Virus genome (UHGV): UHGV-0107297
DNA: 18,657 nucleotides
Direction: 5' to 3' (one strand)
Source of the DNA: a virus
Positions 4,160 through 17,912 of the stretch are shown here, in pieces. How positions within the stretch are numbered: the first letter of the stretch is position 1; every line of letters starts with the position of its first letter. The translations under genes were made by a program, and so were the position numbers. Under the pieces are notes generated by a model. The model worked only from the letters and a program-made list of their open reading frames with translations. It made no database searches and was not told the DNA's origin.

Positions 4160-4165
4160 AATCGA

Positions 4166-4190
4166 GCGCCCACTATGGGCGCTTTTTTCG
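4166..4190 (+). terminator. rho-independent terminator, copy 2 of the same 19-bp palindrome
   Basis: AGCGCCCACTATGGGCGCT at 4166-4184 followed by TTTTTTC. Confidence 0.7.
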
Positions 4191-4589
4191 TTTCCAATAC
4201 TCCCACCATAACGCGCCATCATTAGCGCGTTTTTTATTGTCTTTAACTCGCTCCAACAACATAAAAATAAGCACCAAAATAACGCCATAGACGCGCTTTT
4301 ATATCCTTGTTAGTACATACACATTACTTAACACATTAACGCGCTTAAAACGCGTTATATTGCGCTATAGAGTATGGTTAATCATTGGCTTTTAGTCTTG
4401 CTATGTGATCCGCGTTTATTTGTCGGCGCGGATCGGCTCTTTGTGTTGTTTTGTATCCGCTCGCATATGATTGCCACGTTGGGCAACGTGTACGCGCTTA
4501 CAGTGATTTACCCACGGATTCACATAATCACATAGCGAAAGCTATCTGGATGGCCCAGGGGCTGAAACCCCCACCAGCGCTACCCCAGC

Positions 4590-4780
4590 GCCGCTACGCA
4601 ATTTCTGGCGCGATTCCGGGTTTCTCCCGCTCAGTTTTCTACATAAAGGCGACCCCCGCCGTTTCCCGAAAAAATCTTGGCCGTTTCCCGTCGGCTCATG
4701 AATGCGTTCCTCGCCGTTTCTGAAAATTTCCCTGCGGCAGCTGGTGGCTATAGAGAAAGGGCCGTTTCTGGCCCTCTTCT
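4590..4780. repeat. structured non-coding region with GCCGTTTCCCG / GCCGTTTCTG direct repeats (region A)
   Basis: Copies at about 4659, 4680, 4713 and 4761, plus gggtttctcccg at about 4611; shares CGTTTC(CC)TGAAAA...TTTCCCTGCGGC with 8693-8731. Confidence 0.5.
4758..4775 (-). terminator. terminator of CDS 4784-5266
   Basis: Minus strand reads AGGGCC-AGAAAC-GGCCCT then TTCTCTAT immediately after the stop. Confidence 0.45.
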
Positions 4781-4783
4781 CAG

Positions 4784-5266
4784 TTACACGCCATCAAGGA
4801 TGTGGATGCGGTTGCTTGCGTATACATTCAGCATAAAGTTAGCGCAAAACAGTTTCCATGTGTCAACGCCAGCGGCATACGTAATGTTTTTGCATTTTAT
4901 TGCATTGTTGGCGATCCGCATCCCCTGCGATACTGCTTCATCGTCGGAAAATTTGAACGACGATTGAGTTTTAATCCAGACAGAAATCTGCGTAGCGAAC
5001 TCAATCAGCTTGGACTGGCAGAATCGCCCGGAGCGTACCGGGAAGACAAATGTTCCGAAGCCAGAATTTGCGACATACGCTTTCTCAATTACCCGTGAGT
5101 AACGACGTTTGCAAATGATGTCGCGTGCAATAATGCATTTTTCTTGTGCTGACAGTTCTACCGTCTCATTGTCGCGCCATGCACCAAGTACTCGTTTTTC
5201 AATATCAGAGAACGTTACAGCGATATTGCCATGTGCGGGTGCGTTTACAGTAGCGATAAAATTCAT
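4784..5266 (-). CDS. hypothetical 160-aa protein
   Basis: SD AAGGAA 8 nt before ATG at 5266; box copy upstream. Confidence 0.65.
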   Translation of the reverse strand: MNFIATVNAPAHGNIAVTFSDIEKRVLGAWRDNETVELSAQEKCIIARDIICKRRYSRVIEKAYVANSGFGTFVFPVRSGRFCQSKLIEFATQISVWIKTQSSFKFSDDEAVSQGMRIANNAIKCKNITYAAGVDTWKLFCANFMLNVYASNRIHILDGV

Positions 5267-5282
5267 GATTAATTCCTTATCG

Positions 5283-5320
5283 TAAATAACAAATTGTTTT
5301 CTTGTTGGTGTTAATTATCG
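5283..5320 (-). promoter_or_regulatory. conserved box copy 1 (AAACAAATTGTTTTCTTGTTGGTGTTAATTATCG)
   Basis: Palindromic core AACAAATTGTT; minus-strand TTGACG-17-TAATTA overlaps it; about 20 nt before the SD of CDS 4784-5266. Confidence 0.5.
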
Positions 5321-5441
5321 TTGTACGAATAAGGCGTCAAAGTGGAAAGTTGCGGTAGCCGGACGGGAACAGGTGGGTTTGTCGGTTGCCTGGAGGTAAG
5401 AGGTTGGTGTTTTTAGCCTGCGGGAAACAGGATGGTCATTT

Positions 5442-5465
5442 AAGGCCACCAGCATTGGTGGCCTT
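5442..5465. terminator. GC hairpin AAGGCCACCA-GCAT-TGGTGGCCTT 3' of CDS 5471-5758
   Basis: Perfect 10-bp stem; no clean U-tract on either strand, so terminator or stabilising stem-loop. Confidence 0.35.
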
Positions 5466-5470
5466 ACTCT

Positions 5471-5758
5471 TTAGTGGAGCAGACCGATGTCGATGGTATC
5501 CCCTGAATCATCCACACGGATCATCAGCATGGCGAAGGCGTTTAGTGGATAGCTTGCGTGCCATTCAGGGAAGCGGTCATCTCGCATGAAGTCGGCAATG
5601 TCGTAAACGCAGCCCTCAAAGTGGAAGAATCGCGTGCTTACCTGCTCGTCATATTCCACATGATCCATTTCTTGCTGTTCTGTTTCCGGCAAGTCCAGCC
5701 ATGATTCAAGGAATACATTTTGTGCTTTAGGGGTAATGGTGAAATCAGTCATGAGCAT
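5471..5758 (-). CDS. hypothetical acidic 95-aa protein
   Basis: Track ORF 5471-5884 trimmed to in-frame ATG at 5758 (GTGAGGAT-ATG); D/E-rich; box copy 2 upstream. Confidence 0.55.
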   Translation of the reverse strand: MLMTDFTITPKAQNVFLESWLDLPETEQQEMDHVEYDEQVSTRFFHFEGCVYDIADFMRDDRFPEWHASYPLNAFAMLMIRVDDSGDTIDIGLLH

Positions 5759-5770
5759 ATCCTCACTGCG

Positions 5771-5804
5771 TAAACATATTGTTTTCTTGTTGGTGTAATT
5801 ATCG
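5771..5804 (-). promoter_or_regulatory. conserved box copy 2 (TAAACATATTGTTTTCTTGTTGGTGTAATTATCG)
   Basis: Near-identical to copy 1; abuts the SD of CDS 5471-5758. Confidence 0.5.
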
Positions 5805-5912
5805 CAGTGTAGATAAGGCATAAAAGAAGTTAATACAGGCTGAATACACAAGAAAGGTTCTGGAAGTTGATAGCCAGGTTTCAAACTAACCTTCGGTTAT
5901 TAAAAGTCATTT

Positions 5913-5936
5913 AAGACCACCAATGCTGGTGGCCTT
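5913..5936 (-). terminator. hairpin AAGACCACCA-ATGC-TGGTGGCCTT, relative of the 5442 hairpin
   Basis: 3' of the small ORF 5942-6085; minus strand continues AAATGACTTTTAAT. Confidence 0.4.
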
Positions 5937-5941
5937 AATAA

Positions 5942-6085
5942 TTATCGCCCGATTACGCTAAGGATCTTTTCCTCAACTGATTTGTTGTTGCGACTAAACT
6001 GCCTTGCGTATCTTATGACAGAAGAGGCGTTTCGCTTTCTGACCATCTCGGCTCTCTCCTTCAGGCGTTTCTTGAAATCGCCCAT
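5942..6085 (-). CDS. unannotated small basic ORF, 47 aa (MGDFKKRLKERAEMVRKRNASSVIRYARQFSRNNKSVEEKILSVIGR)
   Basis: ATG 2 nt after stop of CDS 6088-6462 (TAA-AT-ATG), GGTGG SD-like upstream, hairpin directly downstream; below the track length cutoff. Confidence 0.3.
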   Translation of the reverse strand: MGDFKKRLKERAEMVRKRNASSVIRYARQFSRNNKSVEEKILSVIGR

Positions 6086-6087
6086 AT

Positions 6088-6462
6088 TTACCACCAGGCA
6101 CGGAACGTCAGTCTGTTATTGTGAAAGTCGTGGTTCCTGATCAGGTCTTCCACAAGTTTTTTCAGCTTATCCACGTCATGCCAGTAACCTTCATCGTACT
6201 CCTGACTGCCGAAGAAAAAACCTTCCCGGGTAGGTAAGTACACTTCGCAATTACTTTCGTTTATGTGCATCAAATGAGCCTTCAGAAAACAAATGTCATT
6301 CATCGTTAATTCTAAAAGCTCACAATTTTCGACTTCACCTACGTTGCGCTCCATCCACCCAACGAGCGCATTGAACTTACGGAAGTAAGCAACCTGCTTT
6401 CTGGATGCCTCGTTATTCAGATCGTTTTTAGGCTGCGTCTCGATATAGATATCAAGTCCCAT
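6088..6462 (-). CDS. hypothetical acidic 124-aa protein
   Basis: Track ORF begins with GTG at 6504 inside the box; in-frame ATG at 6462 has SD TAAGGATA. Confidence 0.6.
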   Translation of the reverse strand: MGLDIYIETQPKNDLNNEASRKQVAYFRKFNALVGWMERNVGEVENCELLELTMNDICFLKAHLMHINESNCEVYLPTREGFFFGSQEYDEGYWHDVDKLKKLVEDLIRNHDFHNNRLTFRAWW

Positions 6463-6513
6463 GATGGTATCCTTATTAAGTTGCTTCAGTGAAATCATTT
6501 TCACAAATCAGAT

Positions 6514-6540
6514 AAGGCAGAAAACAAATTGTTATCGGGA
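6514..6540. promoter_or_regulatory. conserved box copy 3, inverted orientation (AAGGCAGAAAACAAATTGTTATCGGG)
   Basis: Same palindromic core, flank on the other side; lies between the 6541-6570 terminator and CDS 6088-6462. Confidence 0.45.
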
Positions 6541-6570
6541 ATAAGAAAATGGCGCGGTTTACGCGCCATT
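6541..6570 (-). terminator. rho-independent terminator of CDS 6580-6975
   Basis: Minus strand: AATGGCGCG-TAAAC-CGCGCCATT then TTCTTATT. Confidence 0.6.
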
Positions 6571-6579
6571 CAAAGAGGA

Positions 6580-6975
6580 TTAAGCGAATACGCTTTCAGG
6601 GACAATGGTGTCGATCTTTTCGCCGGAGATTATTCGCAGACCGTGTTGTCCCATCCAGGTACTATTGGTATTTAAACTCGATGTATAAACCGCATCGACC
6701 TTTTTCATCAAATTTTCAAACAACGTCTGATCCGCGCCACGGAAATGAGTTTCCAGTTTTATCAGTAAAGGGTCAGAAGCATTACTGATGCTTTGGTAAC
6801 GCACCGAATATTTTCCCTTTGTGGCCTCGCCGGTGCGAGTTAAGGTACTGGTGTGAACTTCTTCGCCGGAGGCATTATCGCGTAGCACAATTGTAATTTT
6901 TGCAACTTTGTCTCCATTTTCCGTCTCTGATGCATAATACATATCCAGGGTCAGATTTTCGCGTTTAACGGTCAT
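6580..6975 (-). CDS. hypothetical 131-aa protein
   Basis: Strong SD ACTAAGGAGAGTGAA before ATG at 6975. Confidence 0.7.
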   Translation of the reverse strand: MTVKRENLTLDMYYASETENGDKVAKITIVLRDNASGEEVHTSTLTRTGEATKGKYSVRYQSISNASDPLLIKLETHFRGADQTLFENLMKKVDAVYTSSLNTNSTWMGQHGLRIISGEKIDTIVPESVFA

Positions 6976-7030
6976 TTCACTCTCCTTAGTGTTTAATTTT
7001 TAATTTTATTATCATAAGTAAGTACTTACA

Positions 7031-7062
7031 ATACAAAAAAGCCCCGAAGGATTGGCGGGGCT
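7031..7062 (-). terminator. rho-independent terminator of CDS 7097-7408
   Basis: Minus strand: AGCCCCGCC-AATCC-TTCGGGGCT then TTTTTTGTATTG. Confidence 0.7.
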
Positions 7063-7096
7063 GTCGTACATTCGACTAACTACTGCTTGCACATGT

Positions 7097-7408
7097 TTAA
7101 GCTACCGCCTGAACAGACGCTCGTTGGATCTCTTGTTGGGCGACACGGTTGGCTTCCATCAGCGCCAGTTCAAGCTGGTCCTCTGGCCACATTTTCTGGA
7201 CCGACATCCACCCTCTTCCACGCTGGCGACGAACTACCATCACATAGCGCGTAAAATTGCCCGCGTCGAAGGTAATGGCTTTTTCACGAAACAGACGGAT
7301 AGAAGTCCCATTCGCTACGATATCCAGCAATGTGAGATGCCCCATTAAGGTTGGTTTTTCTTTTCTCTCCTGACCTTCAGCAAGACCCAGCACCAATGAA
7401 GTATTCAT
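7097..7408 (-). CDS. hypothetical 103-aa protein
   Basis: Track ORF trimmed to in-frame ATG at 7408 (MNTSLVLG) with SD GGAG; box copy 4 upstream. Confidence 0.55.
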   Translation of the reverse strand: MNTSLVLGLAEGQERKEKPTLMGHLTLLDIVANGTSIRLFREKAITFDAGNFTRYVMVVRRQRGRGWMSVQKMWPEDQLELALMEANRVAQQEIQRASVQAVA

Positions 7409-7418
7409 CACCACTCCG

Positions 7419-7455
7419 TAAACAAATTGTTTTCTCAATGGCGTAAATAATACCA
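7419..7455 (-). promoter_or_regulatory. conserved box copy 4, subfamily b (AAACAAATTGTTTTCTCAATGGCGTAAATAATACC)
   Basis: Same core with a different distal flank, shared with copy 5. Confidence 0.5.
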
Positions 7456-7536
7456 GTGTAAAAACGGCTACAAAGCATATTGCTCAGGCACATGAATTAT
7501 CTAAAGGTGGTTCTTCCCTGCGGCTACAGAGAAGTT

Positions 7537-7559
7537 AAGCCAGCAGGCGGTGCTGGCTT
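7537..7559 (-). terminator. hairpin AAGCCAGCA-GGCGG-TGCTGGCTT 3' of CDS 7569-7898
   Basis: 9-bp stem; weak U-tract. Confidence 0.3.
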
Positions 7560-7568
7560 TGGTTGGGT

Positions 7569-7898
7569 TTACGCGAATACATCAAGGAACTCCTGAACGT
7601 CCCAATGCTGGACAAGGTGAAGATAGAGCTTAGAAATCACGTCATTCTCGCTATCGCATGTGAAGTAGTACTTCTGGCTGCGGTTGTATGTATCCACACA
7701 AAATTCGCTCATATCCATAAAGTCAGCATCATCACCCAGGTCGCAAATAATCAAAGCAGGAGCATCATCACGAGTCATCAGCTCAAGCACCCAGCGCGAA
7801 TTGATCAGCGTGGAAGACCAACCTTCTAACTCATAAAACTGGTCAAACTCTTTTTGAGTCATTTTCTTGATTTGGTTGATGTCGATATTTGCAAACAT
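7569..7898 (-). CDS. hypothetical acidic 109-aa protein
   Basis: Track ORF trimmed to in-frame ATG at 7898 (MFANIDIN) with SD AAGGA; D-rich. Confidence 0.55.
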   Translation of the reverse strand: MFANIDINQIKKMTQKEFDQFYELEGWSSTLINSRWVLELMTRDDAPALIICDLGDDADFMDMSEFCVDTYNRSQKYYFTCDSENDVISKLYLHLVQHWDVQEFLDVFA

Positions 7899-7909
7899 AA
7901 CGCAATCCT

Positions 7910-7945
7910 TAAACATGTTGTTTTCTGAATTGCGTAAACAATACC
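7910..7945 (-). promoter_or_regulatory. conserved box copy 5, subfamily b (AAACATGTTGTTTTCTGAATTGCGTAAACAATACC)
   Basis: Aligns with copy 4 over about 35 bp. Confidence 0.5.
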
Positions 7946-8009
7946 AGTAAGAAAACGGCCACAAAGTATATCGTTACGGTGCTGCGCTGCCCCGGAGGTT
8001 AATAGCGAC

Positions 8010-8030
8010 AAAAGCCACCGTGCTGGTGGC
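8010..8030 (-). terminator. rho-independent terminator of CDS 8038-8256
   Basis: Minus strand: GCCACCAGCACGGTGGC then TTTTGTCGC. Confidence 0.5.
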
Positions 8031-8037
8031 CTCACTC

Positions 8038-8256
8038 TTAATCTTCGTCGCCCGGGAACTCGCTGTGTACCGCGTCCACCAGCTCCCGCTTTTCATCTTC
8101 ACTCAGCAGGTGCCAGATATCCTTCCCTTTGGGCGATTCCCCTTCTGCCGGGACGAACGACCACAACTTGCGGTACAACTCCGGCCCCACTGCATCCAGA
8201 CACTCAGCCAGGGAATCCACGCCCCACACCTCAACCGTCACAGGCATCTTAATCAT
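8038..8256 (-). CDS. hypothetical acidic 72-aa protein
   Basis: ATG at 8256 preceded by GTGAGGATGAAGAG; D/E-rich. Confidence 0.55.
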   Translation of the reverse strand: MIKMPVTVEVWGVDSLAECLDAVGPELYRKLWSFVPAEGESPKGKDIWHLLSEDEKRELVDAVHSEFPGDED

Positions 8257-8286
8257 CTCTTCATCCTCACTTCGTTTATATAACGT

Positions 8287-8322
8287 CTAAACATGTTGTT
8301 TACTTGTTGGTGTTATTATCGC
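8287..8322 (-). promoter_or_regulatory. conserved box copy 6 (AAACATGTTGTTTACTTGTTGGTGTTATTATCG)
   Basis: Subfamily a; upstream of CDS 8038-8256. Confidence 0.5.
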
Positions 8323-8589
8323 AATAAGACAAAGGCGGAAAAGGATTTTATGTCGTGAAAGCCAGGCTGGGCAGTGAATATCCGGGAACGACACGGGAGC
8401 CAGTATTTACGATATTCTGCTCTACGCGCGCCACGGGGCTGGTGGGCAGAATATCCTTCTCCCCGAAAACCTACTGAAATAGCTTGAGACCCAATGATGG
8501 TCTGGCAGAATGGAGTCCAGTAGCTGCACGAGAGGGAATGACACTCCCCCGCGATTTTCAGGCGAGTGAAGAGTAAGGCGCACTCCCGA

Positions 8590-8770
8590 AGATTTCCCGC
8601 ACCGCTCCCGCAGTCGTCCCTCACTCTGTACCGGGATGTACCCGTTTCCCGACCGGCAGCCAGCCTTTCCCCGGTTCGTATAGCGGGATTCCCACCGTTT
8701 CCCTGAAAACCTCAAGCCTTTTCCCTGCGGCGACGCTCCCGTTCCTGAAAAGGGACATAGCTTTCCCGGA
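8590..8770. repeat. cluster of about 7 YTTTCCC(G) repeats (region B)
   Basis: gatttcccgc 8591, cccgtttcccgacc 8641, cctttccccgg 8665, ccgtttccctg 8695, ccttttccctgcgg 8718, cccgttcctg 8738, gctttcccgg 8760; related to region A. Confidence 0.5.
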
Positions 8771-8954
8771 TGGCCCGAAGGCTGACCGAAGGGGTGGAAA
8801 GGGACGTTACGGGGGATGAAAACTATGGCTTGAATTTATGCGGAAAAAGTGGCGATACCCCTCCTTCCCTTCCCACTTATACCTCCCACGAATTTTCTCT
8901 CTTATGTGGGCATAAACCTTCCCTCTGATAACGCTCTATACGGCGAGTATTCCT

Positions 8955-9480
8955 TTGGGTGAAATGGGTGGTTTGTTCTTTCTACCGGCATATGTGGTTT
9001 CGTTCTTCTTGAGGTGGTTCTTCTCTGTGTTTTCGTCTGGGTTGTTCTCGTCGTTTTGGTGAGTGTTCTTCTCCGTGTATGGAGTAATGGCAGGTGCGCT
9101 TTTCTCTTCGTTTACGTGAAATGATGAAAGTGTGGGTAATGGCAGTAGGGCGCTTTAGTTGTTCTCCGCATATGAAGTAATGGCGTTCCCTGCTATTCAG
9201 GAATTTGCGCTCTCTTTCGGGGTAATGGTGGGTAAACGAGATTGTGACGGCTCCTGTTCTTGTCTGGGTTTGTCCGGGGTTTCGTTCTGGCTGTTCTTCT
9301 CCGTGTATTGGGTAATGACGTATCGGGGTTTGCGCGTGCGAACCGCGTTCTCGGTTGCCTGGGAATATTAGGTGGGTGGTCTGTAGCCTGGGGCAATGAG
9401 GTGGGTCTTTTCGGTAGTCTGACAGGAAGAGGTGGGTGTTTCCGGGATTGTGGGTAATGGCGTCTCTGGGTTTCCTGTGG
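8955..9480. repeat. degenerate G/T-rich repeat array, no convincing ORF
   Basis: About 22-bp GKTKKTTCTTCTC units at 8960-9080; GTAATGG at 9084, 9136, 9177, 9222, 9312 (GTAATGA) and 9455; a 26-bp block GTTCTTCTCCGTGTATNGRGTAATGRC at 9065 and 9293; strong G+T strand bias. Confidence 0.6.
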
Positions 9481-9546
9481 GGGTTGTTAACTTGTTTTCT
9501 TATGCCTGAAAACAACTTGTTTAGATGCCCAATATAACGCAACGGG

Positions 9547-9571
9547 AGCGCTTCTGAGCGCTTCTGTTTTT
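9547..9571 (+). terminator. plus-strand rho-independent terminator at the right end of the repeat array
   Basis: AGCGC-TTCTGA-GCGCT hairpin followed by TCTGTTTTTGAG. Confidence 0.45.
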
Positions 9572-9714
9572 GAGTGATATCACGAGTCGTTTTTGACGTT
9601 TTGGTCGCAGGGAGATGGATTCTGGTGCGCAGGATTTTGGGTATAAGAGATGGCTTGCGAAAACGTCAACTTTTTAGACCAAATCAGAGGAAAGCGTTGA
9701 CTTTTCGTTGACGT

Positions 9715-9748
9715 GTTATTTATTTGTTTTCTTATGGGTGTAATTGGC
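9715..9748 (-). promoter_or_regulatory. degenerate conserved-box copy (TTATTTATTTGTTTTCTTATGGGTGTAATTGG), no gene downstream
   Basis: Matches the subfamily-a flank with only half of the palindrome; adjacent GTTGAC/GTCAAC repeats at 9664-9712. Confidence 0.3.
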
Positions 9749-9865
9749 TTAAATGCCTTGTCACCCCTGGGCTGGGGTAGGTTGGAGAGGTGGGGGAAGT
9801 GGCGATCAACGGACTCTTATAGAAATCCTCAATTTGTGACCGCCAATGTCAACGAGTTGCAGCCG

Positions 9866-10492
9866 TTAGTCGTTTAGGTAGTAATTAGGCACGCGAACGT
9901 AGAAATTCTCGTCACCGATCATTTCGATAGTGATGTTAATGTCATTACCGTTATCCAGTGTAGCCGTGGCTTTGTAGAACTTGTCCGTCACTTTGTCCTG
10001 AATTGTTACCTTCATGCATTTAGATGCTTCTGAACCGTTATTTTCTTTCAGAATAGTGGTAACTATAGGGCAAGCAGCTTCTTCAAGCGCTGAATCTGCG
10101 TTGAAGCTATACACGAAAAATGATGCAGCAAAGGCAACAATCCATACGATAAACAGCAGTCGGTTACTTCCAAGAACCGTCGCTCGTTTCCAGAGATACA
10201 CAGGGGGGATAAAGAACCCACATAAGAATGATGGTGGCTCATAGCCTGCCTCAGTCAAATTCATGCGATCGGCGACCAGCAGTCCAAGCCCAATGACGAA
10301 CGAAATCACCATAACGTAATTGTCGTACTCAGCAGGGGGGACGCTGACAACAAACGGCAGTATTGCTATAAGCCACGCGTAGAGGTTTTTAACTGATTTT
10401 TTTTCTAAAGTATCGATTTCCATTACATCCATTCCATTTTGAAATACAAGCGGGTATATGATATCAACTTTCCAGGTAATTATTCCCGCCAT
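9866..10492 (-). CDS. predicted integral membrane protein, 208 aa, with about 80-aa soluble C-terminal domain
   Basis: ATG at 10492 is 15 nt after the upstream stop; hydrophobic segments LYAWLIAILPFVVSV, YVMVISFVIGLGLLV, LLFIVWIVAFAASFFVY. Confidence 0.65.
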   Translation of the reverse strand: MAGIITWKVDIIYPLVFQNGMDVMEIDTLEKKSVKNLYAWLIAILPFVVSVPPAEYDNYVMVISFVIGLGLLVADRMNLTEAGYEPPSFLCGFFIPPVYLWKRATVLGSNRLLFIVWIVAFAASFFVYSFNADSALEEAACPIVTTILKENNGSEASKCMKVTIQDKVTDKFYKATATLDNGNDINITIEMIGDENFYVRVPNYYLND

Positions 10493-15583: not shown

Positions 15584-15664
15584 TTATTCACTTTATTCAC
15601 AGGCCCGATCCAATATTTAGATCCCCAGAGAGATCCTACAGAAGATCAAAAGAGATCCCCGATC
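15584..15664. promoter_or_regulatory. origin module copy A: tandem DnaA-box-like sites plus six GATC sites
   Basis: TTATTCACT/TTATTCACA at 15584-15601; GATC at 15607, 15620, 15632, 15644, 15654, 15661. Confidence 0.6.
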
Positions 15665-15702
15665 GTCTCCAGCGCTTGCGGTTACTGGCTTGAGAAGGGG
15701 TT

Positions 15703-15810
15703 ACTATCCACTATAGGGAGCAAAATAACCACTGTAGAGAGCATAATAACCGCTATGAAGAGCAAAACAACCTCTCTGGAGAGTAGTCGGTATCCACTGT
15801 AGTGAGTAGG
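15703..15810. repeat. iteron set A, 5 copies at 24-bp spacing
   Basis: ATCCACTATAGGGAGCA, AACCACTGTAGAGAGCA, AACCGCTATGAAGAGCA, AACCTCTCTGGAGAGTAG, ATCCACTGTAGTGAGTAG. Confidence 0.7.
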
Positions 15811-15967
15811 AGACAATGTTTTAACTGGATAACTCCGAGCCTGTTTTTCTGCGGCAGATGGCTGATATTCTTGGAAATATTGTAAATTTTGCGTTGCGGC
15901 GTGTTTATTTCGATCACACATTATCCCCAGAAGGGGAGTGATGCCTGATTTTGTAATTATCTGATTT

Positions 15968-16040
15968 TTATACACAGGCCCGATCCAGTAATTCAGATCC
16001 CTGTTAGAACCAAAGAGAACCACAAAGACCCAAAGAGATC
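15968..16040. promoter_or_regulatory. origin module copy B: DnaA-box-like site plus three GATC sites
   Basis: TTATACACA at 15968-15976 followed by the same GGCCCGATCC junction as copy A; GATC at 15982, 15996, 16037. Confidence 0.55.
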
Positions 16041-16087
16041 CCCGGCCCCTGCAAACCGTTGTGCCACATGGCTTTAGAGGTTATCGA

Positions 16088-16220
16088 TATCCACTATAGT
16101 GAGAAGAACAACCACTATAGAGAGTAAATCAACCACTATGGAGAGTAGAAAAACCGCTGTAGGCGGTAGGATAACCACTGTGATGGGTGCTACTATCCAC
16201 TGTAATCAGTAAAGGCACCC
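16088..16220. repeat. iteron set B, 6 copies at 24-bp spacing, immediately upstream of repA
   Basis: ATCCACTATAGTGAGAAG, AACCACTATAGAGAGTAA, AACCACTATGGAGAGTAG, AACCGCTGTAGGCGGTAG, AACCACTGTGATGGGTGC, ATCCACTGTAATCAGTAA. Confidence 0.75.
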
Positions 16221-16249
16221 AAGCCGTCGAATAAAAAGAGACATTTGGA

Positions 16250-17305
16250 ATGAGCGTAAACGACAATAAAAACATTGCGATAAGCGAAGCATTTTCCGAA
16301 ACAGACAAAAAGACCGGCGAAGTTGTTACGTTAGTTCCTAACACCAACAACACAGTTCAGCCTGTTGCTCTGATGCGTCTTGGTCTCTTCGTTCCGACGC
16401 TGAAATCGACATCCAGGGGTAGAAAGGGGCAAATGGTCTCTATGGACGCCTCCGCTGAACTCAAACAGCTGTCTCTGGCCAAAGCCGAAGGGTACGAGGA
16501 TATAAGGATTGCTGGTCTTCGTCTTGATATGGATAACGATTTCAAAACATGGGTGGGCATCATCCACGCGTTCGCCAAGCACAAGGTTGTTGGTGACACC
16601 GTCACGTTGCCGTTCGTCGAGTTCGTCAGACTTTGTGGCATACCAACAGCCAGATCGTCCGCGAAGTTACGTAAGCGCCTGGACAGCTCTCTAAGTCGTA
16701 TCGCCACAAACACCATCTCATTCCGCAGCAAAGGCTCTGAAGAGTATTACGTTACGCACCTTGTGCAGACGGCAAAGTACAGTACCAAGAATGACACGGT
16801 CGAACTGAAGGCCGATCCTAAGATTTTCGAACTTTACCAGTTCGACAAAAAGGTGCTTTTGCAACTTCGGGCCATCAACGAACTCTCCAGAAAGGAATCC
16901 GCGCAGGCGCTCTACACCTTCATTGAAAGTTTGCCACCAGACCCGGCGCCAATCTCATTGGCTCGCTTACGCGCCAGACTTAACTTAACCAGCCGCACCA
17001 TTACCCAGAATGCGACAGTCAGGAAGGCGATGGAGCAGCTGCGAGAGATCGGCTATCTCGATTACACTGAAGTGAAACGCGGCAGCTCGGTCTACTTCGT
17101 CATCCACTATAGACGGCCGAAGTTACGTTCGGCACTGCCGCCATCTATGGCTACGCCTGAAGAGCCAGAAGATATCTTGCCAGGTGATGATCCGGAGGAC
17201 ATTATCGATGTTGCCCCTGAAGAAAAAGACGGGGAAATGGTCATGTTGAGCAAGGAAGAACTGGCGATTCTCGAAGAGCTGCGCAAGGCAAAGGCTCGCA
17301 AATAG
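16250..17305 (+). CDS. repA: iteron-binding replication initiator, RepFIB/P1 RepA family, 351 aa
   Basis: Flanked on both sides by iterons; conserved blocks recalled from RepFIB initiators ([62 protein letters not shown]). Confidence 0.85.
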
Positions 17306-17912
17306 CCCAACCACTGTAGAGAGTAAAAAGGCTCACTACAGTAGATAGTGAGCCTTTTTGTTTATCGGAAATGCAATATCCACTGTAGTGAGTAAAAGAA
17401 ACCGAAGAATAACCACTGTAGGCAGTGCGCACAAATCGCGAAGTAAATGTTAGTGGTTGCAAACATAGATAAAACAAGGGCTGAGAGGTTAGCGGTCACT
17501 GGGTATCTCTGTTAAGTCTACTCTCTACAGCGGTTATCGTCGCTCTCCTCATTGTTGACTATCCACTGTGAAGAGCAGAATTGGCTGACTTGACCTCTAT
17601 CCACTGTAGTGAGTGGATATCCGTTTAAAACAGCGAAGATTTACTCTCCATAGTGGATATCCGCTGGAGGGGGCATTCCATCACTCTCTATAGTGGTTGT
17701 TTGTAGTCAGTGAACGCCTGTTTACTCACTACAGTGTATAGCGACCCCGATAATCACCAATTTACTCACTACAGTGGATAGTTGATATCGTGGCAGAGGG
17801 TTTGCTCACTACAGTGGTTGGGGTGCATACCTGAAGGGTGTTCTACTCGCTACAGTGGTTATGAGCCGGATTCACACGCGGTGAGCTGGCTACTCACCGC
17901 AGTGGATAGTGT
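17306..17912. repeat. downstream iteron field, about 14 copies in both orientations
   Basis: Core CCACTGTAGTGAGTA and its reverse complement TACTCACTACAGTGG recur at irregular spacing. Confidence 0.75.

Follow-up and report, generated by a model that had tools for sequence, protein, structure and literature searches.

A conserved non-coding repeat module of SSU5/pHCM2-type phage-plasmids: a candidate cis-acting region of the lytic cycle

The virus genome UHGV-0107297 was analyzed as a stretch of 18,657 nt, here called the window, whose positions are used for all coordinates. Between two blocks of minus-strand genes it contains a non-coding region at 8285-9858, the module, which carries a cluster of short direct repeats (type I iterons), an inverted repeat that we call the pivot, and an array of further repeats in which one strand is rich in G and T. 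Comparison of related sequences leads us to favor the view that the module is a discrete, selectively maintained, cis-acting DNA element, and neither a gene nor a folded RNA. Its main features and flanking genes are:

8038-8256, minus strand: left flanking gene, in the gene block left of the module
8590-8781, plus strand: cluster of type I iterons, consensus (G)CC(G/T)TTTCCC(T)G, core written GCCGTTTCCC
8786-8885, no strand assigned: pivot, an imperfect inverted repeat whose arms, the first G-rich and the second C-rich, enclose a loop of about 40 nt with conserved TTGAAT...GCGA
8982-9542, minus strand: open reading frame (ORF) of 186 aa in the array, with a TTG start and many R, H, P and E residues
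9064, 9157 and 9292, plus strand: type II repeat, 26 nt, GTTCT(T)CTCCG-N-RGTAATGG, with extra GTAATGR at 9136, 9222 and 9454
9351, 9380 and 9411, plus strand: type III repeat, about 30 bp, three tandem copies, GGTAGCCTG-N8-GAGGTGGGT
9866-10492, minus strand: right flanking gene for a 208-aa protein, in the gene block right of the module

Conservation and coding potential of the module

The window is assigned to a phage-plasmid of the SSU5/pHCM2 type because the module matches the phages SSU5 and Cyrano and IncFIB plasmids of about 105-130 kb. The sequence-only reading, an earlier note made from the letters of the window, had suggested a BLASTN search across plasmids as a check of whether the array is conserved or variable. 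The module region proved to be conserved with matches in 659 plasmid records, nearly all of them IncFIB plasmids of 105-130 kb that are non-mobilizable and come from Klebsiella, Escherichia, Enterobacter, Salmonella and Citrobacter. Twelve phage records match the module, among them those of SSU5, a phage of Salmonella, and Cyrano, a phage of E. coli. In the matching records the module is either unannotated or has differing short 'hypothetical' ORFs placed inside it. Homology begins at about 8285 and stops at about 9858; the genes on either side vary by lineage. No homologue outside the SSU5/pHCM2 family was found in searches of phage records and genome contigs. A scan of genome contigs with a 19-base motif returned only Kluyvera relatives, two contigs that are likely misassigned and two Acinetobacter contigs without other similarity, with about four matches expected by chance.

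For the analysis of conservation we used 43 full-length homologues from about six lineages, of which 13 representatives served for consensus folding and for the promoter and G-quadruplex scans. The module was full-length in every lineage sampled, with 65-72% identity between lineages. Between the window and the Klebsiella lineage the flanking genes had an identity of 0.30-0.56 at third codon positions and of 0.47-0.76 overall, and flanking gene content varied between lineages. Because the flanking genes are saturated at third positions and variable in content, we concluded that the module is under selection. Going by these identities the constraint on it is no weaker than that on the protein-coding genes beside it. 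Conservation was patchy, with invariant blocks of 10-30 nt, variable spacers, and indels that were not multiples of three.

No ORF of 55 aa or more was common to the lineages, in keeping with the earlier remark that the stretch lacks a convincing ORF; none is conserved in 8285-9858. The sequence-only reading had itself named decayed coding sequence as the finding that would speak against it, and neutral filler is a related explanation. Several records do annotate short hypothetical ORFs inside the module. But invariant blocks of 20-30 nt are present in all lineages, and identity is equal to or above that of flanking protein genes with saturated third positions. Conservation together with the absence of a shared ORF excludes decayed coding sequence as well as a real gene, and we give the explanation as decayed sequence or filler hardly any credence.

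Phased iterons at two loci

The cluster of TTTCCC repeats described in the sequence-only reading was confirmed, with six exact copies, all on the plus strand, at 8593, 8645, 8666, 8698, 8720 and 8762, and degenerate copies at 8739 and 8687. The total of 16 TTTCCC in the whole window is unremarkable, as 24 of 200 shuffles reached it. The unusual feature is the clustering of six copies on one strand within 175 bp (8593-8767). The type I units start at 8593, 8642, 8664, 8695, 8717, 8739 and 8760, in two 22-bp registers with an offset of 9 bp, and spacings of 22, 44, 31 (22 + 9) and 52 bp recur in all lineages. Periodicity of TT was seen at 10.5 bp and at 23-24 bp, with z = 16-20 versus shuffles. 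Judged by their spacing, the TTTCCC units are helically phased iterons with a 22-bp phase, and they form tandem direct repeats as found in iteron-type origins. The period of about 22 bp that had been assigned to the G/T-rich array is thus real, but belongs to the TTTCCC cluster.

The same iteron is found at a partner locus, gapA:

4160-4783, plus strand: gapA, a conserved non-coding gap between convergent operons
4166-4190 and 4211-4240, plus strand: intrinsic terminators
4755-4780, minus strand: terminator
4658 and 4680: GCCGTTTCCCG, two copies at 22-bp spacing
4713 and 4761: GCCGTTTCTG
4727: TTTCCCTGCGGC
Within gapA: AT-rich stretch with TAACGCG repeats, GC 0.33-0.37

The 9-mer CCGTTTCCC has exactly four exact copies in the window, all on the plus strand (4659, 4681, 8642 and 8695) and confined to the two non-coding gaps, where about 0.14 exact copies are expected for a 9-mer. 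The core GCCGTTTCCC occurs at both 4658-4732 and 8642-8725 in the same orientation. GapA is kept in all lineages with 66-84% identity, its iteron part being the best conserved, and the arrangement recurs in Cyrano at 99,036-99,065, where gapA corresponds to 98,940-99,556 and the module to 94,275-95,802. The gapA iterons sit between convergent terminators; therefore promoter control is not needed there.

The two iteron loci bracket the early-gene block (4784-8256). The order of iteron cluster, early genes, second iteron cluster and, about 300 bp on, G/T-rich array was preserved in nearly all of 75 further viral contigs, which were centred on the adjacent 160-aa gene and were judged for this order if they reached far enough. 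Across viral contigs the two clusters lie 1.5-4.6 kb apart. One iteron at two loci kilobases apart is what characterizes a P4-type bipartite origin, and here this arrangement is conserved across contigs. A scan of viral contigs for the iteron pattern yielded mostly chance matches and, in addition, an identical arrangement in four contigs of about 110 kb that are more divergent. In these (L112, L172, L181 and L114 of IMG/VR, about 108-111 kb where known) the iteron arrangement GCCGTTTCCCGAAAA...CCGTTTCCCTGCGGC is kept. They showed no blastn similarity to the module or gapA at E = 1e-10, and their loci were too short to judge the G/T array. From the shared arrangement they are probably deeper-branching relatives.

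The G/T-rich array and the question of an RNA

The strong G/T bias reported for 8955-9480 was borne out by a G+T content of 70.3% compared with 50.3% in the whole window. GC skew in the array was +0.25 to +0.33 and AT skew -0.33 to -0.51. In the 108-kb Cyrano genome the array is the most strand-biased segment of 500 bp, with a keto skew of -0.44 versus -0.17 in the next window of that scan. It is present in 50 of the 53 viral contigs that are informative for it.

Regular units of about 22 bp, as described before, were not recovered: all that Tandem Repeats Finder detected was a 24-bp unit with 2.6 copies (9016-9078). The remainder of the array consists of several interleaved repeat families, at least two in number (families D1, D2 and D4). 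The six copies of GTAATGR counted earlier are there, at 9084, 9136, 9177, 9222, 9312 and 9454. The motif GTAATGGC has five copies in the whole window where 0.56 are expected, and no shuffle reached five. The 26-nt block listed above as type II had also been seen before; it belongs to family D4 and has three copies, not two. Further spellings of the module repeats are GTTCTTCTCCGTGTATGGAGTAATGGC, TAGCCTG-N8-GAGGTGGGT and CGTTGAC. All repeat motifs are in one orientation in every lineage.

G+T content rises with conservation of the alignment columns, from 0.60 in variable to 0.71 and then 0.77 in invariant columns. Because G+T is highest at the most conserved columns, the bias is, on this comparison, selected and not a by-product of mutation or drift; directional substitution counts alone did not tell mutational from selective bias. 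The minus-strand ORF at 8982-9542 exists and is of low complexity, as had been stated. By its composition it is spurious, a by-product of the C/A-rich complementary strand, and in close relatives it is shortened to 129 aa (L002) or 89 aa (L003) or is absent (L017). Two other readings of the array were rejected. Four runs of three or more G with short loops, i.e. a G-quadruplex, do not occur in the window, and the scattered motifs in 2 of the 13 representatives are unconserved. A CRISPR array, in which identical repeats of 24-48 bp alternate regularly with unique, similarly long spacers, does not agree with repeat families that are short, degenerate and irregularly spaced.

The sequence-only reading had considered possible a G/U-rich non-coding RNA that is transcribed from left to right and ends at 9547-9571. 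This was not supported by Rfam, folding, terminator, promoter or RNA-seq data. Rfam gave no match at the gathering threshold, and permissive settings gave chance-level hits only (13-16 bits, E above 2). Sliding-window RNAalifold of the 13 representatives with column shuffles detected no conserved secondary structure on either strand; energies were near zero and z was mostly above -1.5. The 996-nt core folded worse than dinucleotide shuffles, with z = +1.1 and +1.0 for the two strands. The pivot gave a weak alifold signal, with its best values (z = -2.3 to -3.0) for the minus strand. Its complementarity is kept by differing pairings in each lineage (GGGGGAT/ATCCCCC, AGGGGTGT/ACACCCCT), and it marks the switch from C-rich to G-rich sequence in the module. 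The candidate signals for transcription of the plus strand are:

8346-8605, plus strand: separable left segment with an inverted repeat (8411-8420/8446-8455), a Chi site (8438-8445) and the candidate promoter
8484-8511, plus strand: candidate sigma-70-like promoter, TTGAGA-16 nt-TGgCAGAAT, above threshold in 10 of 13 representatives
9546-9573, plus strand: terminator-like hairpin and T-run, owed to a 10-bp tandem duplication, GAGCGCTTCT twice

The plus-strand terminator of the sequence-only reading held for the window, where the hairpin with its T-run folds with -17.9 kcal/mol, but it is strong only in the window's lineage. In other lineages the hairpin is weak or absent (-2.4 to -13.4 kcal/mol), and around it only the T-run near 9565 and the AACGCAACGGGAGC block are conserved. 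The candidate promoter lies in a segment that is replaced in the SSU5 lineage, where about 450 bp of unrelated DNA (L003 3048-3512) stand in for approximately 8348-8605. The replacement carries the 80-aa plus-strand ORF SSU5_110 (phrog_23830, function unknown). SSU5_110 is the sole plus-strand gene amid an otherwise minus-strand region. The least conserved part of the module is 8513-8610.

Published RNA-seq of an E. coli LF82 lysogen carrying Cyrano (GSE154648) reports expression as log2(fpkm+5), fpkm being fragments per kilobase and million reads. These samples are from the lysogen only; antisense transcripts are reported, so that the data are apparently stranded, and the paper is silent on strand-specific counting. 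CYRAN_103, the spurious ORF in the array, had a value of 2.32 in the two LB replicates, which equals 0 fpkm, and did not exceed 4.27 in four other conditions, while the flanking genes CYRAN_102 and CYRAN_105 reached 8.4 and 7.8, respectively. Taken together, the module is not a structured RNA, and it is probably not an RNA at all.

Another form of RNA would be a long and for the most part unstructured transcript restricted to the lytic cycle, either G/U-rich from the plus strand starting at about 8518 or C/A-rich from the minus strand, which would act as a sponge, decoy or primer. The strict single orientation of the motifs fits such a transcript, as do the sigma-70-like promoter candidate found in most representatives, the plus-strand replacement ORF of SSU5 that points into the array, the conserved T-run with a good terminator in the window's lineage, and two local inverted repeats in which the tolerated changes are G-U wobbles on the plus strand only. 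RNA-based origins are known, moreover, from extrachromosomal mycobacterial prophages (PMC7157519). On the other hand, there is no Rfam match and no conserved structure, folding is worse than in shuffles, and neither promoter nor terminator is universal. Expression was zero to trace in five lysogen conditions, with the reservations on sample type and strandedness given above. The 22-bp phasing and the iterons in a terminator-flanked gap are also hard to explain at the level of RNA. Thus we regard a lytic transcript as unlikely.

The composition of the minus-strand RNA raised another explanation, a Rho-dependent terminator or insulator, where minus-strand transcripts entering from the variable cargo genes to the right would be untranslated, would load Rho and would end short of the early genes. 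In RNA of the array's minus strand, C would exceed G about two- to threefold along more than 500 nt, and this RNA is predicted to be poorly structured. Within the same Cyrano samples, reads drop from a log2 of about 8.4 for CYRAN_102 to one of about 3.3 for CYRAN_103, and the right-hand block yielded no conserved intrinsic terminator on the minus strand. Yet about 80 nt of suitable composition are enough for a rut site, which has no need of invariant motifs and phased iterons over 1.5 kb, an intrinsic terminator of 40 bp would suffice for the purpose, and the TTTCCC cluster and its partner locus would be left unexplained. We consider this explanation improbable.

Early-promoter elements, plasmid replication and a possible role in the lytic cycle

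Both ends of the module and its right part carry further elements:

8288-8325, minus strand: left boundary, the early-promoter module of gene 8038-8256; block about 93% conserved across lineages; extended -10 TGCGATAAT (8315-8323, minus), 13 nt, palindrome AAACATGTTGTTT (8289-8301)
9489-9545, minus strand: degenerate early-promoter module; palindrome AAACAACTTGTTT (9510-9522), half-site 9492-9498, TTGCGTTATAT on the minus strand; no gene behind it
9590-9720, both orientations: CGTTGAY cluster (9593, 9664, 9695, 9706), about 90% conserved
9660-9705: inverted repeat within the CGTTGAY cluster, AAAACGTCAAC...GCGTTGACTTTT (inverted repeats I12 and I13)
9712-9750, minus strand: second degenerate early-promoter module; TTGTTTTCTTATGGGTGTAAT on the plus strand, direct repeat D5; nearly invariant in lineages A-D; no gene behind it
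9797-9858, no strand assigned: right boundary block, AAGTGGCGATCAACGG.CTCTTATAGAAATCCTCAATTTGTGACCGCCAATGTCAACG, about 92% conserved, with two more CGTTGAY in reverse orientation
9797-9858, minus strand: promoter-like site in this block, TTGACA-16 nt-GAGGAT, above threshold in 8 of 13 representatives

The canonical early-promoter module, of which the window has five on the minus strand, consists of an extended -10 (TGnGATAAT), 13 nt, the palindrome AAACA-N3-TGTTT, a Shine-Dalgarno sequence and ATG. The palindrome occurs nine times in the window (5772, 7420, 7911, 8289, 9510, 11074, 11125, 11503 and 11819) where 0.04 copies are expected. In Cyrano it is found upstream of operon starts genome-wide, including those of terS, parA and dnaB. 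Given this distribution, the palindrome probably serves a global phage regulator as its operator. The -10-like hexamer of the degenerate copy at 9489-9545 is not kept as a good -10 across lineages. Between 9590 and 9858 there are five or six CGTTGAY in all, in both orientations. The inverted repeat at 9660-9705 is kept; of the changes in it, one is fully compensated, several are wobbles and several are uncompensated.

The right boundary of the module behaves, as far as gene content tells, as a hotspot for the insertion of cargo. The gene just right of it (9858) differs in each lineage: it encodes the 208-aa protein in the window, a 400-aa protein in SSU5, a lysogen-expressed coiled-coil moron in Cyrano, and others elsewhere. 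The Chi site at 8438 was rejected as a special feature of the module, Chi being enriched genome-wide. Chi (GCTGGTGG) has 11 copies in the 18.7-kb window versus about 0.6 expected (2 x 0.28) and 25 copies in the 108-kb Cyrano genome versus about 3.3 expected (2 x 1.65).

Could the module be a hub of transcriptional control? The iterons at 4640-4780 and 8590-8780 would then be operators through which a regulator loops out or silences the early genes at 4784-8256, and the other repeats would bind regulators of the lysis-lysogeny decision. In every lineage the early genes lie exactly between the two iteron loci, whichever of the distances given above separates these. The module is bounded by the operator-bearing early-promoter module and contains degenerate copies of it, early genes and module are silent in the lysogen, and helical phasing suits cooperative binding of a repressor. 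However, the gapA iterons lie between convergent terminators and not at a promoter, and the early genes already have an operator palindrome of their own. A region of 1.5 kb with four or five repeat families exceeds by far what known looping systems need, and the extreme G/T bias of a single strand has no obvious role in an operator. On balance a control hub is a serious contender, though rather unlikely.

The plasmid state of the family is served by a separate replicon at 15590-17910 with a Rep_3-family repA at 16250-17305. The iteron TATCCACTGTAGTGAGTA, of which there are about 19 copies in both orientations, is found on both sides of repA. DnaA-box-like sites are located at 15593 and 15968, and a segment of about 100 bp upstream of repA is duplicated with an offset of 383 bp (15686-15786 and 16069-16169). 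The module iterons differ from TATCCACTGTAGTGAGTA, and an iteron sink for RepA was therefore rejected.

Natural insertions and deletions bear on whether the plasmid state requires the module. In the 112.8-kb plasmid CP099103.1 (L098) an IS3-family insertion element sits inside the module at about 8798, in the pivot. The 52-kb deletion derivatives of the CP057434.1 (L097) family, six near-identical records that have lost the virion genes, carry IS100 inside the module at about 8566-8577. Furthermore, 3 of 53 informative viral contigs are without most of the module. Because the module is interrupted or absent in these natural elements, replication and partition in the plasmid state appear to be independent of an intact module. 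We take the module to be dispensable for plasmid maintenance, which in turn points to a role in the phage cycle.

The same elements weigh on the proposal that the module is a site of plasmid maintenance, i.e. a centromere, a set of iterons for incompatibility or copy control, or a site for multimer resolution. Its arrays of direct repeats are reminiscent of type Ib/II centromeres and of incA-type control loci, and genes with a ParB N-terminal domain lie a few kilobases to the left. Insertion elements nevertheless split the module in stable natural plasmids (for IS100, a 52-kb plasmid with six records), and it is missing from three contigs. ParA and its partner are located elsewhere, at 29 kb in Cyrano, and none of the 20 window ORFs scanned against Pfam was of the ParA type. 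The RepA iterons are different, and the module contains no palindromic parS-like site. A partition centromere in particular was rejected, as there is no adjacent parA-parB operon and IS-split as well as module-less elements occur in nature. A maintenance site of any kind is very improbable.

The neighbouring genes give hints to the phage-cycle functions of the family. A DEAD/DEAH-box helicase is encoded at 50-1603 on the plus strand, and its Cyrano counterpart is annotated as UvsW. The SSU5/pHCM2 family also carries genes annotated as UvsX, UvsY, a gp32-like single-strand-binding protein, RNase H, an SbcCD-like protein and RuvC. By annotation these would constitute a T4-style set for recombination and replication in a temperate phage-plasmid. 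A packaging site (pac or cos) at the module is unlikely, as terS and terL are about 13 kb away in Cyrano, at the start of the divergent region. No tRNA or tmRNA was found. The 189-aa protein encoded at 2336-2905 on the plus strand matches the Pfam family 'Repressor of phase-1 flagellin' (FljA-like) with E = 1.9e-95. From this match the phage-plasmid may interfere with flagellin expression of the host.

Among the alternatives that the sequence-only reading had offered to an RNA, a protein-binding array or an origin-like element fits the evidence better. Tentatively, and with less than even confidence, we read the module as a cis-acting region that initiates or controls lytic replication or recombination. 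We infer, rather than observe, that proteins bind the repeats, that both loci work together and that they do so in replication or recombination. The module would be a platform of protein-binding repeats made up of the phased 22-bp iteron array, the G-rich/C-rich pivot, the 0.5-kb G/T array and the CGTTGAY cluster. One phage-encoded protein would bind both iteron loci, and during the lytic cycle these would jointly form a bipartite region that initiates or controls replication or recombination, similar to ori and crr of P4. The G/T-rich strand could be the displaced strand or the preferred substrate for strand exchange by the UvsW/UvsX/UvsY/gp32 machinery. We favor replication or recombination because phased 22-bp repeats are typical of initiator binding, because the partner iterons sit where no promoter is needed, and because the family carries UvsW, UvsX, UvsY, gp32 and RNase H of the T4 type.

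Several observations are at odds with this reading or do not discriminate in its favor. Phased sites common to two loci also fit a looping transcriptional regulator, and the G/T array itself has only weak periodicity. Replication origins commonly adjoin their initiator gene. Here, no cognate initiator adjoins the module iterons, the sole Rep_3 initiator in the window uses the different iteron TATCCACTGTAGTGAGTA, and in Cyrano the phage helicase and primase genes are about 60 kb from the module. Pfam and PHROG scans of the conserved neighbouring proteins returned function unknown throughout and identified no binding protein. Neither a DnaA box (TTATNCACA) nor an IHF consensus is present in the module or gapA, and there is no clear AT-rich unwinding element inside the module, the AT-rich stretch being confined to gapA. 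The cumulative GC skew of the genome was uninformative for an origin, as it rises monotonically with gene orientation.

Satellite phage P4 offers the closest model for two cooperating loci. Its origin is bipartite, with ori and crr both required in cis and the repeat TGTTCACC bound by the alpha primase-helicase. As in P4, two non-coding loci kilobases apart share a short direct repeat in the same orientation. In contrast, the iteron here is GCCGTTTCCC and unrelated to the P4 repeat; the analogy is one of function only, and the 0.5-kb G/T array has no counterpart in P4. No alpha-like gene turned up near the module, where no search aimed at alpha-like proteins was made. RepA-type iteron loci such as P1 oriR/incA, F and R6K likewise have an 11-bp core at a two-turn phase of 22 bp and a second, distant array. 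Unlike these the module is without an adjacent initiator, DnaA boxes and an AT-rich unwinding element, and appears dispensable for maintenance.

In T4, oriF and oriG consist of a promoter with an R-loop that is removed by UvsW, and oriE of an early transcript with 12-bp iterons. The module is comparable in its place in an early region among host-type promoters, in its iterons and strand asymmetry (GC skew +0.3), and in the UvsW, UvsX, UvsY, gp32-like and RNase H genes of the family. It has no sequence similarity to the T4 origins and no MotA-type promoter, and it is far larger; the likeness rests on context. The 'injection stop signal' region of T5, a siphovirus of about 120 kb, is a large, non-coding, repeat-rich early stretch. 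By description only it resembles the module, which also has more than 1 kb of non-coding DNA with dense direct and inverted repeats amid small early genes of a large siphovirus. The RNA-based origins of extrachromosomal mycobacterial prophages are 0.4-0.5 kb long, expressed in the lysogen and needed for prophage maintenance (PMC7157519). Like them the module is a non-coding region of a phage-plasmid for which replication is proposed, but it is almost unexpressed in the lysogen and seems dispensable for maintenance.

The module would be of a known kind as an iteron-bearing cis-acting region, while the combination of phased iterons and a distant partner locus with a long, selected G/T multi-repeat array is not known from elsewhere. 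A bolder version is a new kind of lytic initiation zone. Here a phage protein would bridge the phased iteron arrays, and the G/T strand would be the displaced strand of an R- or D-loop or the preferred substrate on which UvsX, the RecA homologue of the phage, would carry out pairing. This would seed T4-style recombination-dependent replication, with the prophage using the separate RepA replicon. In this specific form we consider the proposal doubtful.

Clinical Klebsiella, E. coli, Enterobacter and Salmonella commonly carry phage-plasmids of the SSU5/pHCM2 type, whose switch from plasmid replication to lytic growth is hardly described. The literature on their non-coding regions, termini, transcriptomes and lytic origins yielded no description of the module. 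Yet module and gapA are conserved like the adjoining protein genes in every lineage sampled, and are left unannotated or are labelled as spurious 'hypothetical proteins'. If the module is instead a regulatory hub, it defines the cis-logic of the early region. If it is a lytic origin or master control site, it would open lytic replication in the whole family of phage-plasmids to mapping, offer a target by which these elements could be cured or disabled, and add a new example of strand-asymmetric repeat arrays that control replication or recombination.

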